DNA of 64,000 nt from Roseivirga sp. (GCA_051277025.1 JBNMPT010000001.1:32-64031); one strand, 5' to 3'; counted from the first letter of the stretch, positions 6,591 to 12,653 are shown. The notes: a model not told the origin generated them from the letters alone. Numbers and translations: made by a program.

Positions 6591-9500
6591 TTAACTTTCA
6601 AATGAAATAATTAGCTTGTCAGATGTTGGTCTAGCTTGGCAGGCTAAAATCATTCCGCGTTTCTTTTGTCCTTTCGACAAAGCGTCATCAATATCCATCT
6701 CTGCTGTCCCTTCTACTACCCGACAAATACATGTTCCACAGAAACCTTCTTCACAAGAGAAAGGTGCGTCCACTCCCACTTCTGCAGCGGATTCAGTTAG
6801 ATAACAACCTTCCATATTAGGAACGATGTGTTCTTCACCAAAAATATTCATGGTTATCGTTTTCGCTGCTATCACTTGCGTAGCTTTTGCTACCGCTTCA
6901 ACTTTTGGCGCCTCTTGGCTTTTAACTTTCTTCTTTGGTGATGCAAATTTTTCAACATGAACACGATCATCATCAACGCCCATATCCAACAAGCCCTCTT
7001 CTACAACATCCATAAAGCCCCAAGGACCACAAACAAAATAGAGTCCGCTCGTAATTTCGTCACAATATGATTGCACATCACGAGTATCGATACGACCTTC
7101 TGCTTTGCCTAATCGATGAATAACCTTAAAGCGCTTATTATACTGTTTTTTTAGGGCATCCAACTCGTTACGGAATATGGTTTCTTCTTTATTCCTATTC
7201 ACGTAAACAAAACGCACCTTACGATCAGAAGTATTTAAAAATTCTTTAGCAATAGATAAAACCGCCGTAACCCCACTGCCCGCAGCGAATAAATACAAAT
7301 CACCCTTTTTATCTGGTACTGTGAAACGTCCGTCTGGTGCGAGAGCGTTTAAACTATCACCAGCCTTGATATTATCGCATAACCAGTTACTTACCATACC
7401 ACCCTTAACACGTTTAACCGTAATACGCAAATCGTCATCAATACTTGGGGCGCTAGATAATGAATAGGCTCTTTTATGTGTCTCTCCCTCAATATCTAAC
7501 GATAAGGTTAAAAACTGACCAGGTCTATAGCTTAGGTATTCCTCTTTTAAATCATCTGGGACGCTTATGTAGAACGACTTACTGTCGGCAGTTTCTTCTG
7601 CAACTCTTGCCACCTTTAGTTCATTGAACATCTTTTTTGTTCGCTTAACTTGGGTGGTCGAAGCCTCTACTTTAACTGCTGTTAAAGCTGAGGTTTCGAC
7701 CTTGGCCGTTGATTCTATACTTGCCGTTACTGCTGTTACATCATTTTTTTTTTTTAAAGAAGCAAGGATTGATGTATCACCCATAAACTGGTCTGGATTA
7801 TCTGTCCCACAATTTGGACAGCCTTTTAACACATCGTCTTGATAATAATTACACGTTGGGCACTGGTAAACTTTAAAGTAAGCACGAGGCTTATTTAATT
7901 TATTAATCACTCGATTTCCGTCACCATCGAAATTATTAAAGACGGTATTGAAATCAATACCCTTCGTTTTACCTATATCGCGACACATTTTATTAAATGG
8001 ATCGATGATCGCGGCAATGTCATGAGCCATTTTTTCGGGGTCACTTTGATCGGCTTCAAACTTCTTTTCTATTTCTCTTACCTCTTTTATTAAACCTGTC
8101 CAGGTCGGATTTAAAGGATCAAATACATATGGGTCACGGCTACTATAATGGCCTTTGGCTAATACATCTATGCCTCCCCAATGAAATTTAGCATTCATGG
8201 TTTTCTCAAATGCTAAAGGGTGTGCCCAAGAGCGATATAACATATCAGTTTCTTGAACTAATACCGGGTATAACTCAGAGCCATATTTAGAGTATTCTGC
8301 AAAAGCGCTTTCTTCATAATTTTTTTCGTCTAGGGCTTTTACAGTATCAACAGCAGCCATGTAGGATGTTCCACTTCCGTAGTTAATACCGTGCGAGAAT
8401 AAGGGGTTAGAGAATTGTGCGCTATCTCCAATTGCCACCCAACCCTTACCTGCTACTTGGGTCGAGTCGTGCGCTAAACCTAAGAATGCAGCATATGGGC
8501 GGCGCTTTTCTCGGTAAGGTTTTTCAACTAATTCATAATGCTCAAGTATCCAAGCAAAAGCTGGGTACCTTTCTGCATAATGCATAAATCTTTTTTGAAT
8601 CGGTAAATCTTTCGCGGTATCCATATCATCACGAACGGTAATACCGATGGATGTAATAGGTTCAAATTCAGTACCATGCTTTTCTTGAAAGAACTTTCGT
8701 GGTGGTACATCAGAATCTTCCTCAGAATCATGGTCCATCACGTCATTCACCATTTTCAACATGGTTTCATCATCTGCACTTTCCCACGAATGAACCGTAA
8801 TAAACCAAATCCAACCTTGAGGCGTGCATAAATGACGAGTGGCTGGTTCTTGCCATCTCGCTAAAGGCACCTGCTTCTTTTGTCTAAAATATGCAAAGTA
8901 GCAGTTGGTCTGAAATGTGTCGTGAATCGCAGGGTCTTTTCTATAAGTACCTAAGTGACGTGGAAGGACTGCCGCTGGGCCAGTAGCATCACATACAAAA
9001 CGGGATTTAATGGTAAACGATTCGCCATTTTCATCAATACATGCCAATTGTTTAACTTTCCCATCTAATTGACAATCGTCAATTTCAACATGTGTATTAA
9101 CCTTAAAATCAATACCTTGCTCCTTAGTTAAACGCTGTAATGCCATTTCAAAGACACGTCGTTCAATTTGAAAAGTTTCTTCCAAATCGGTAATATCACA
9201 TTCGCTTTCTGGCTCTTTGCTTTCTGTTCCCATCCACCAAAAACGGATACCTCCTTTGTTTCCAAATAAGCGACGCATTTGAGGCATGGTGAATCCCATC
9301 GCTAGAAAGCACCTTACCGTGGTTGAAAGTGTGGATTCACCGACTTTATAACCGGGGACTTGTCTTCTTTCTAAGATAACGACTTTGCTTTCAGGTCGCA
9401 TACGTTTAACCCATTGGGCATAAATCATACCCATTGGTCCGCCACCTAATACCGCTACGTCGTAATCTACCTCTGAATCATCACTTAAGGGTGCTGAAAT

Positions 9501-11361: not shown

Positions 11362-12653
11362 GATGAAACAGAATTATTCTTGCGATGGAAACTATCTGAT
11401 AAATCAATTCGCTCTGAGTTGACACTCTGATCAAAATTTAATTCTGGGAGTTTAAATAGTCGATTGCGATTTTTTGCGATTAGATGTAAGGATACTAGAG
11501 AAACAATGGTGCCGATGATTGCGTAACTTAATAAAGCCATATCGGTATGCAAGGCCTCTAAAAAAATGGCGGTTGAAACTATTTCAGTAATTGCTAAAAA
11601 AGTAACAAATCGTACTAAGTTTCTGGTGCTTAATTGCGAAGCTAACCACGAACCAAAAGGCGCACCCCAACAAACTATGGGAACCGCTGCTAACAATAAT
11701 CCCAATAAATCAAACCGAGAGGCTGACGCGCCATCTCCACTGGCATAAATTAAGTTTCCAATGGAATCTAATGTAACAGGTCTCTTCGCAACAGAAGTTA
11801 CGTCACCAACTTCATTTAGACCAACAAAAAGCTGCATATCAAAAACACCCAAAAAGGCCAAACCTAAAAGGGAAATAATAGCCATACAAACAACACTGGT
11901 TGGAACACCTACTTTAGGGTCAATTGTAAAAAAGACTACTAAACCTAAATAAACAAAAACATCACTGCCCGAACCGACCAATGATGAGGTAACACCACCT
12001 AAAAAACCTATGATTAATAAGGTTGTGAACATCTGCCTATTCAATGGTGGTAATACCCGATGGACTTCTCTCAGACTTACCCTTGTTCCTGTATAAACAA
12101 CAAAAGCCATCGCAGTTAAAACAATTGTAAATGTTACTTTAACGTATTCACCCGGTAATAAGGATGGACGAAAGGGCGCCTCGCTATTCGATGCTAAATA
12201 ACCAACCAATAGAAAGCCAAAGATCGCGGAAACACTAGTTATTAAGACTGTTCGCCATTCCACTGGCCGTCTATTTATTATAATAGACAATGAAGCAGCA
12301 GTCATACCAATTGACTGGATACTTAAGGAAAAGGTCCGTGCAATTTCGGTAGGGATATCCAAAACTTTCGTGAACACAGGAAAGGCTATAGCTCCGCCTC
12401 CCTGAGGCGTTGAACCGGCAACAATACTGCCAAATACCATTGTTAAGGAAGCAGGCCATTGGCAAAAAACACGGCTCCACAAATCATAATAAGCCATACC
12501 AAGCAACCACAATAATGTAATAAGCACCGAAATTCCGATTGCCTTATATGATCGGGTATTTTTCACTTTTTTTCGTGCAACCCATGCCTCACCTAAAATG
12601 TCTGAATAAGATTTAGCTAAAGTCTCGGTGTTTGAAAATAAAGTATCCGCCAA
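11358..12653 (-). CDS. TSUP / sulfite exporter TauE/SafE-family membrane protein (TTG start)
   Basis: Many TM helices; TMVFGSIVAGSTPQGGGAIAFPVFT, ARTFSLSIQSIGMTAA, GGVTSSLVGSGSD, AVPIVCWGAPFGS. Confidence 0.8.
   Translation of the reverse strand: MADTLFSNTETLAKSYSDILGEAWVARKKVKNTRSYKAIGISVLITLLWLLGMAYYDLWSRVFCQWPASLTMVFGSIVAGSTPQGGGAIAFPVFTKVLDIPTEIARTFSLSIQSIGMTAASLSIIINRRPVEWRTVLITSVSAIFGFLLVGYLASNSEAPFRPSLLPGEYVKVTFTIVLTAMAFVVYTGTRVSLREVHRVLPPLNRQMFTTLLIIGFLGGVTSSLVGSGSDVFVYLGLVVFFTIDPKVGVPTSVVCMAIISLLGLAFLGVFDMQLFVGLNEVGDVTSVAKRPVTLDSIGNLIYASGDGASASRFDLLGLLLAAVPIVCWGAPFGSWLASQLSTRNLVRFVTFLAITEIVSTAIFLEALHTDMALLSYAIIGTIVSLVSLHLIAKNRNRLFKLPELNFDQSVNSERIDLSDSFHRKNNSVSS

Follow-up and report, generated by a model that had tools for sequence, protein, structure and literature searches.

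What does a flavin-dependent halogenase (FDH) do when no scaffold-biosynthesis genes surround it? FDHs have been studied almost wholly as natural-product tailoring enzymes that need a separate flavin reductase. The question is raised by a 64,000-nucleotide stretch of Roseivirga sp. DNA (GCA_051277025.1, JBNMPT010000001.1:32-64031; hereafter the window), in which genes for a TSUP (TauE/SafE) permease, a Hanks-type kinase and a halogenase fused to cyclic nucleotide-binding (CNB) and reductase domains follow one another (Table 1). A preliminary description of the locus regarded the trio as a compact operon for signalling or defence, in which the membrane protein supplies halide or exports product and the kinase adds a second layer of control. 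Our tentative reading, held with somewhat less than even confidence, is of a halogenation module under the control of a second messenger and of phosphorylation, with its own reductase and a substrate not made locally, in which the kinase probably serves the permease.

Open reading frame (ORF) calls and a reading of the junctions bear out the described layout, with three co-directional genes on the minus strand. The permease-kinase junction reads tcatcATGAag at 11361-11358, such that the TSUP stop codon TGA overlaps the kinase ATG with four bases in common, and the 76-bp gap between kinase and fusion (10485-10560) contains no terminator-like hairpin. Overlapping reading frames, a short gap and no such hairpin speak for a single transcript, which the three genes may share. 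Contigs of other sequencing runs span 461-9494 (brine 2019), 5830-12386 and 6331-11761 with few differences, and since these bridging contigs come from independent runs, the arrangement is no assembly artefact. The bridging runs are mostly labelled ‘ice metagenome’, plus one ‘brine metagenome’ of another year, indicating that the organism inhabits sea ice or brine. The description had also found no nonribosomal peptide synthetase (NRPS), polyketide synthase (PKS), carrier-protein or Trp-pathway genes nearby; Pfam searches detected nothing similar in the remainder of the 64 kb, and with no biosynthetic genes within that distance the halogenase lies outside any biosynthetic cluster. The rest of the window, which starts 31 nt from the contig end, is housekeeping: accBC, fabH, plsX, yceD, pdxA, pepA, dxs, an AcrB pump, tRNA synthetases, sigma-54 and type IX secretion system (T9SS) cargo.

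An independent 51.6-kb marine metagenome contig (locus L078) carries the same three genes in the same order, with the same overlap and with a TPR cyclase gene, all on one strand. Its flanks are unlike those of the window (subtilase, LpxR, OmpA and others), the position of the cyclase is shifted, and the intergenic regions of the two loci give no meaningful alignment. Between window and L078, dN is 0.17-0.24 for all three genes and dS is saturated; low dN with saturated dS indicates that each gene is under purifying selection. The trio is thus co-conserved in one independent marine contig. Locus L001, from a Flavobacteriales metagenome-assembled genome (MAG), holds the nearest homologue of the fusion, with 90% identity over the halogenase domain. 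There the fusion has a glutathione peroxidase gene after it, and a riboflavin-pathway gene (GTP cyclohydrolase II) and an IS200 transposase gene are close by (4024-4581, 6394-6978 and 8808-9317).

Table 1. Features of the trio, its counterpart in L078 and surrounding elements; positions are those of the window unless L078 is named (aa, amino acids).
Feature	Position	Strand	Evidence and remarks
TSUP (TauE/SafE) permease gene	11358..12653	-	431 aa, TTG start; Pfam TauE 3e-14
Hanks-type kinase gene	10561..11361	-	266 aa; Pfam Pkinase 6e-35
CNB-halogenase-reductase fusion gene	6591..10484	-	1297 aa; Pfam multi-domain
CNB1 (aa ~20-145)	10050..10427	-	Pfam and homologue alignment
CNB2 (aa ~185-320)	9525..9932	-	Pfam and homologue alignment
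Halogenase domain	7875..9488	-	PDB sequence and profile matches, family alignment
Cys4 ribbon (C875, C878, C889, C892)	7809..7862	-	Invariant Cys columns; predicted Zn site
A12 run (Lys codons), halogenase-reductase linker	7744..7755	-	A10 at the same place in L078 (~12729-12738) and L001 (~2469-2478)
FNR-like FAD/NAD module (aa 957-1162) and 2Fe-2S ferredoxin (aa 1214-1287)	6624..7616	-	Pfam, PDB alignments
L078 TPR cyclase gene	5635-7590		Same strand as the trio
L078 TSUP gene	7798-9093		72-73% aa identity to window TSUP, by alignment method
L078 kinase gene	9090-9890		66% identity; same ATGA overlap
L078 fusion gene	9992-13933		75% identity
TPR and class III cyclase gene 1	688..2523	+	Guanylate_cyc 5e-57; KIKTIGDAYMA; YDIWGDTVNTASR
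TPR and class III cyclase gene 2	2529..4658	+	Guanylate_cyc 2e-57; same adenylate-type signature
Metallo-beta-lactamase (MBL)-fold hydrolase gene	5182..6000	+	Lactamase_B_2 1e-18; uncertain role, outside conserved core
IS4-type transposase N-terminal remnant (DUF4372)	12964..13287	+	Pfam; just upstream of TSUP gene
Multi-copy ~265-bp repeat	13315..13590	.	Nucleotide copies and very high depth; synteny edge

From its N-terminus, the fusion consists of CNB1, CNB2, a MalA-type halogenase, a Cys4 ribbon, a Lys-rich linker, an FNR-like reductase and a plant-type 2Fe-2S ferredoxin, matched in Pfam by two cNMP_binding domains, Trp_halogenase/FAD, FAD_binding_6, NAD_binding_1 and Fer2. MalA' is its best sequence match (4e-45 by sequence alone, 1e-94 with a family profile aligning to MalA' residues 29-621), and fusion residues 333-712 score 157 bits against MalA' versus 66 bits against PltA-type enzymes. 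MalA' is also the best Foldseek match (E 5e-38, TM 0.77 over ~645 columns) of an AlphaFold2 (AF2) model of residues 171-1297 (pLDDT 84.4), for which the best fold matches are all halogenases, and the ESM Atlas neighbour of the fusion is an Ascomycota halogenase cluster.

The catalytic motifs lead to the same family. The FAD motif GxGxxG appears as GGGPMG (G347, G349 and G352 invariant in the family alignment), and the catalytic-type Lys410 in LFGNKGGIRF, kept in at least 90% of the family, aligns with the lysine of MalA' LFGLKDGLCF (K108 in MalA', K79 in PrnA). GWIWFI, with W558 and W560 invariant, aligns with MalA' GWVWVI and like it has no Pro; this WxWxI(P) block keeps substrate off the flavin. 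The FxxPxxSxG motif is FSNPLFSHG, the profile alignment sets Asp773 (WGGIDVL), conserved in at least 90% of members, against MalA' Glu494, and the four ribbon cysteines fall on the CxxC...CxxC Zn site of MalA' in the profile alignment to its residue 621. The GxGxxG motif, the lysine, WxWxI without Pro, FxxPxxSxG and the C-terminal Cys4 are thus common to the fusion and MalA/MalA', the fungal malbrancheamide halogenase (5WGR and others), whereas the bacterial protein has Asp at the 494 position, Ala at the H253 position, two CNB domains and a reductase fused to it, and no biosynthetic cluster around it. Taken together, sequence and modelled fold indicate that the fusion is a MalA-type FDH, and halogenation is its presumed activity.

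The reductase module aligns with 2pia over residues 956-1293 and with 6laa and 6kbh over 948-1293, and resembles 1krh as well. Its order, FNR then 2Fe-2S, is that of phthalate dioxygenase reductase (PDR) and of the CYP116B P450 reductase domain; PDR-type reductases serve aromatic oxygenases. Class VII P450s (CYP116B/P450-RhF type) likewise carry a PDR-like FNR and 2Fe-2S at the C-terminus of an oxygen-activating domain, but the electron acceptor here would be flavin, not haem, and transfer from a one-electron cluster to a two-electron FAD is unproven for halogenases. Reductase-bearing sequences form one clade of the family tree (SH-aLRT 100), within which the reductase is fused in some genomes and split in locus L004, where the halogenase gene (10474-12801) is followed by a separate, adjacent FNR/2Fe-2S reductase gene (12852-13859), indicating that the partnership is old and real. 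The homopolymer A run of the linker lies near the point at which other members of the family stop or have the reductase as a separate piece; no variants in its length are listed in the contigs of four runs.

Self-sufficiency among halogenases has precedent in AetF, a single-component enzyme that does not need a separate flavin reductase (PMC9772203). Judged from literature descriptions, the fusion has this independence in common with AetF and Bmp5. To our knowledge, neither of these has an Fe-S cluster, appended reductase domains or CNB domains. The literature searched yielded no paper on a natural Fe-S reductase fusion of an FDH, nor on an FDH combined with cyclic nucleotide binding.

The N-terminal half of the argument concerns ligand gating. 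PF00027 (beta-barrel) matches the fusion twice (1.7e-34 overall), CNB2 is modelled at pLDDT >90, and the CNB domains match PKA/PKG regulatory domains. In the CNB1 cassette (GEITLMDPGPASAT) the Glu is kept and Ala stands where cAMP/cGMP binders have Arg; this position is Ala or Thr in all homologues aligned, with the motif GE[IV]SL..PG[PK][AT][ST]A[TS]. In the CNB2 cassette (FGLISLVDNGPKWAT) Leu replaces Glu and Lys replaces Arg; the Leu is found in the homologues aligned, most of which retain the Arg, with Lys in the window and L078. Placement of CNB domains N-terminal to, or in partnership with, a catalytic unit recalls cAMP-gated enzymes such as the mycobacterial acetyltransferase Rv0998 and the tandem CNBs of the PKA regulatory subunit, although in the fusion both cassettes are non-canonical and the ligand is uncertain.

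A putative source of ligand lies next door, where two tandem TPR class III cyclase genes, followed by an MBL-fold gene, converge on the 3' end of the fusion gene. All three cyclases, the two of the window and that of L078, have the motifs F[ST]DFKGFT, KIKTIGDAYMA and YDIWGD[ST]VNTASR. We take the Lys in KIKTIGD, the Asp in YDIWGD and the Asn/Arg in VNTASR to be the classical adenylate signature, and by their two metal Asp, substrate Lys/Asp and transition-state Asn/Arg the cyclases of both loci are predicted to be of adenylate type. The organism's own assembly (1.8 Mb, 74% complete) contains only five cyclase-domain matches, so two chance adjacencies are unlikely.

A link to signalling extends across the halogenase family, which we surveyed in 79 loci, each with a gene related to the halogenase. 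The set is in part linked by common ancestry. The family (MalA-type, with Zn ribbon) occurs in many phyla without a TSUP or cyclase nearby, and no NRPS or PKS was seen among the genes that recur or are annotated beside it. Fusion of the halogenase to CNB domains is seen repeatedly, in Bacteroidota, Chloroflexota, Actinomycetota and a delta-proteobacterial MAG. In Chloroflexota CNB1 is often a separate small gene directly upstream of a CNB2-halogenase gene, as in locus L007 (4239-4757, 4764-6917) and likewise in L015. A GGDEF-EAL gene adjoins an unfused MalA-type halogenase in 15 cyanobacterial loci (e.g. L036, 7481-12111), directly upstream in the 14 of Pleurocapsales type and downstream in Oscillatoria (L055). 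An ORF of 111-148 aa comes next in most of these loci; the one scanned (L036) had no Pfam match.

Further branches pair the halogenase with other regulators. An Ignavibacteria locus (L038, 4803-15857) contains, in this order, an ECF sigma factor, a Ser/Thr kinase (STK)-TPR protein, an OsmC-like protein, a SAM methyltransferase, the halogenase and DUF4395; a CarboxypepD_reg protein and then a PAS-LuxR regulator come after the DUF4395 gene. By ORF sizes and partial Pfam scans, L038 is matched by a Kapaibacteria locus (L021, 242-4858), which ends before the sigma and kinase genes, and by an alphaproteobacterial MAG (L074, 4955-11737). Chloroflexota halogenases neighbour STK-REC-LuxR, STK-NB-ARC and calpain genes. 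Peroxide-handling genes adjoin two different branches: the L001 fusion is followed by glutathione peroxidase, and OsmC precedes the halogenase in L038 and L074. We also considered the kinase as a general neighbour of the family, but its presence in 17 of the 79 loci is not clearly above background given that some host genomes hold ~40 kinases each; the general kinase association is weak, and the CNB, GGDEF-EAL and ECF associations are the informative ones. Judged from these gene neighbourhoods, the bacterial MalA-type clade appears repeatedly tied to signalling. The signalling context proposed in the preliminary description is thereby upheld, with adenylate-type cyclases beside both blocks and a family fused to CNB or adjoining GGDEF-EAL, ECF-sigma/STK and STK-REC genes.

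The permease scores 53.7 bits against PF01925 (TauE; cut-off 32.6) and falls in a large long-form subfamily (909 matches at E <1e-20). The L078 orthologue, likewise 431 aa long, begins with ATG, in support of the TTG start assigned here. The protein features a long helix at the N-terminus, about 9-10 helices in the membrane, a beta-hairpin inserted outside the membrane at aa ~277-303 and the conserved motif GS.VAGSTPQGGGA.AFPVFTK; its AF2 model is helical (pLDDT 89, pTM 0.87) and gave no significant Foldseek match in the PDB, with BacA-like structures matching weakly. The PF01925 match and the PQGGG motif are common to TSUP permeases (TC 2.A.102), from which the 431-aa long form, the N-terminal helix, the hairpin insert, the Hanks-type kinase partner and the lack of a solved relative set it apart. 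The family is named after a toluenesulfonate uptake system. We know of no TSUP that transports halide, the task that the preliminary description had offered for it. In 400 genomes of its own phylum, TSUP relatives are 33-40% identical over the N-terminal half only and none has a kinase within 1.5 kb, and no match was found among plasmids.

The kinase is a bare, sensor-less 266-aa domain. In common with PknB-like Hanks Ser/Thr kinases it keeps the beta3 Lys (K39), alphaC Glu (E56), H126-R127-D128, D145-L146-G147 and APE in the orthologue alignment; unlike them, it and the close orthologues aligned have Lys at the catalytic-loop Asn (HRD[VI]KPAKIL), which the distant small kinases P0174-P0176 retain. 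Close orthologues number only ~30. Adjacency to a permease was judged from a common longest contig and consecutive accession numbers. Twelve permease/kinase pairs lie on the same longest contig, some of these contigs being just 2.8-5.7 kb, and consecutive accessions occur in Rhodobacterales bacterium HKCCE2091 and in Alexandriicola marinus/Ponticoccus sp. SC2-23, indicating that TSUP and kinase form a conserved two-gene cassette on their own. The kinase is therefore not obviously the second control layer over the halogenase that had been proposed: it belongs to a TSUP pair conserved alone in Rhodobacterales, and from this distribution it most probably works with the permease.

No TSUP-kinase fusion protein was found among the 150 best kinase representatives, where the candidates were FHA-kinases, tandem kinases and one cyclase-kinase. 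A 453-aa protein (P0277) joins a class III cyclase to a protein kinase distantly related (34% identical) to that of the operon. Plasmids yielded generic kinases only (~31% identity), and 400 genomes of the class to which the L074 MAG belongs yielded no kinase orthologue. A limited literature search found no description of a TSUP-minimal kinase cassette.

Gene order and its conservation, the domains, the catalytic motifs, the MalA-like fold and the reductase found fused or split are observed; on them we build a mechanism in which co-transcription, the ligand, the route of the electrons, the halogenating activity, the target of the kinase and the solute carried by the permease are presumed. The block is composite, a union of two older units: a long-form TSUP permease with a translationally coupled minimal kinase, and what would be a self-sufficient, ligand-gated halogenase. 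The two N-terminal CNB domains would keep the enzyme off until they bind a ligand, most simply cAMP or a related nucleotide from the adjacent TPR adenylate-type cyclases. NAD(P)H would then reduce the fused FNR module, the 2Fe-2S cluster would relay the electrons to the halogenase FAD, and reduced flavin, O2 and halide would yield a Lys410-held hypohalite that halogenates the bound substrate. Since no neighbouring genes make a substrate, it may be a common or exogenous compound. The minimal kinase would act on or with the permease, which may move a small anion linked to the reaction, whether substrate, product or counter-ion.

Several observations weigh against this proposal. Co-conservation of the three genes rests on two related loci, and the third, L001, is truncated on the upstream side of its fusion and so says nothing on the matter; in hidden Markov model (HMM) scans of the 79 halogenase loci, TSUP and class III cyclase occur in 2, the window and L078. 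The promoter/terminator scan gave counts no better than shuffles. Neither CNB domain has the canonical phosphate-binding cassette (GE...R[ST]A), and since neither cassette has the Glu/Arg pair, the ligand may not be cAMP. The cyclases of window and L078 are just 34-36% identical, which suggests that they are paralogues, and TPR cyclases occur elsewhere in the genus too. In the catalytic loop of the kinase (HRDIKPAKIL), Lys replaces the Mg-binding Asn of the Hanks consensus HRDxKxxN, a change in the metal site that leaves kinase activity unproven on sequence. We know of no FDH that accepts electrons from a 2Fe-2S centre. Furthermore, no TSUP-kinase contig is among those of the CNB-halogenases of at least 713 aa; with TSUP-kinase pairs lacking a fused halogenase on their contigs and a halogenase family lacking TSUP, the coupling of the two units may be recent or incidental.

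Taken further, this last point suggests neighbours without a common job: a TSUP-kinase pair for regulated anion export (e.g. of sulfite or sulfonate) and a CNB-halogenase joined in a mobile or variable region, and still adjacent in two related lineages through descent and not selection. We consider this a rather unlikely explanation, though one with several facts on its side, including the Rhodobacterales pairs with no CNB-halogenase of that length on their contigs, the presence of TSUP in only 2 of the 79 loci, the insertion sequence (IS) remnant and repeat at the edge of the block, and the absence of the block from 40 relatives examined, including 15 of the same genus. However, order, overlap and short gap persist between window and L078 despite saturated synonymous sites, changed flanks and a moved cyclase, and the 76-bp gap is free of a terminator-like hairpin. 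A quite different proposal, that the protein is no halogenase in vivo and instead acts as a monooxygenase for a sulfonated or aromatic compound imported by the TSUP, with a PDR-type reductase, we judge the most improbable of those considered. It would agree with what is generally known of TSUP naming (toluenesulfonate uptake) and of PDR-type reductases and aromatic oxygenases, and with the resemblance of the FNR and 2Fe-2S module to 2pia and 1krh, but the family as a whole conserves the lysine, the WxWxI block, FxxPxxSxG and an acidic residue where MalA' has Glu494, and the top fold matches are exclusively halogenases.

Alternatively, the block might be a Pycsar-like device for defence or a stress burst, in which the TPR cyclase, on sensing an invader or damage, would produce a cyclic nucleotide, and the CNB effector would then consume NAD(P)H and let out hypohalite or peroxide, to the detriment of the cell itself or of a competitor. 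The layout is shared, in that a class III-type cyclase adjoins a CNB-bearing effector, with weak PADLOC matches (CNB1 against the CNB part of PycTIR, 4.5e-22; cyclases against PycC, ~1e-13 to 1e-14); peroxide-detoxifying genes lie beside homologues (glutathione peroxidase in L001, OsmC in L038 and L074), and a variable region would suit such a role. Yet the PADLOC matches are at domain level, the same cyclases scoring 1e-57 on the general family, and the cyclases have TPR arrays and the Lys/Asp adenylate signature rather than a pyrimidine-cyclase one. Pycsar pairs a pyrimidine cyclase with a CNB effector that bears a transmembrane or TIR killing domain, and here the effector is a halogenase-reductase. 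No known defence genes, and no defence island, lie near the block in the window or L078; viral contigs contained no halogenase relatives, and the kinases there were generic (at most 39% identity). FDHs normally retain hypohalite, which also counts against a burst. A defence role thus finds no positive support (no defence neighbours, no viral copies, generic PADLOC matches), and we regard the Pycsar-like explanation as improbable.

A related and equally doubtful idea is that of an oxidant made on demand, in which the cyclase nucleotide would switch on the self-wired halogenase to give hypohalite, haloamine or a halogenated signal within seconds in halide-rich sea-ice brine, with no need for a biosynthetic pathway. 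The TSUP-kinase pair might then handle a protective or product anion, and the glutathione peroxidase and OsmC of relatives might provide self-protection. In function such a device would be the counterpart of the haloperoxidase bursts of animals, with an FDH at its core.

The second-messenger-gated halogenation module that we favour would, if active, be a ligand-switchable halogenase that works without a helper enzyme, useful for biocatalysis, and cells in halide-rich sea-ice brine may then use halogenation as a regulated physiological response. More broadly, the locus draws attention to a bacterial MalA-type clade wired to signalling, with its own Fe-S reductase in one subclade and no scaffold genes around, and the TSUP-minimal kinase cassette offers a testable case of Hanks-kinase control over an anion permease. 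All parts of the block belong to known families. What is new here is the test of co-conservation, the independent TSUP-kinase cassette, the atypical kinase loop and the cyclase adenylate signature, as well as the reductase fission, the family-wide signalling context and the sea-ice habitat.

The surroundings of the block are less conserved. The protein encoded by the MBL-fold gene has the C-terminal part of RNase Z as its closest PDB entry (2e-12), and the gene is not present in L078. We considered it as a phosphodiesterase for cyclic nucleotides (cNMP), but its nearest solved relatives are RNase Z and the gene is not kept in L078; its role is uncertain. Within this gene, many foreign contigs match ~32 bp alone at 5383-5427 (loose ends at 5394 and 5426, with a bump in depth); the stretch encodes the HxHxDH of the MBL-fold protein, so we attribute the matches to a conserved motif and not to a repeat.

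On the other side, the block sits in a variable region of the genome, and the halogenase part was not found in the 40 relatives, 15 of them of the same genus. Nucleotide synteny with relatives starts only at accC, ~14164. Sequencing depth is raised in the bin 12880-13356, over the DUF4372 remnant. The ~265-bp repeat, of which this genome and two relatives of the same genus (G003 and G011) have no fewer than 13 copies apiece at 82-92% identity, looks like an element of the miniature inverted-repeat transposable element (MITE) type. A copy of this repeat borders accC in the nearest relative, where T9SS proteins, LepA and TrpRS lie on its other side. In G003 a copy adjoins accC.

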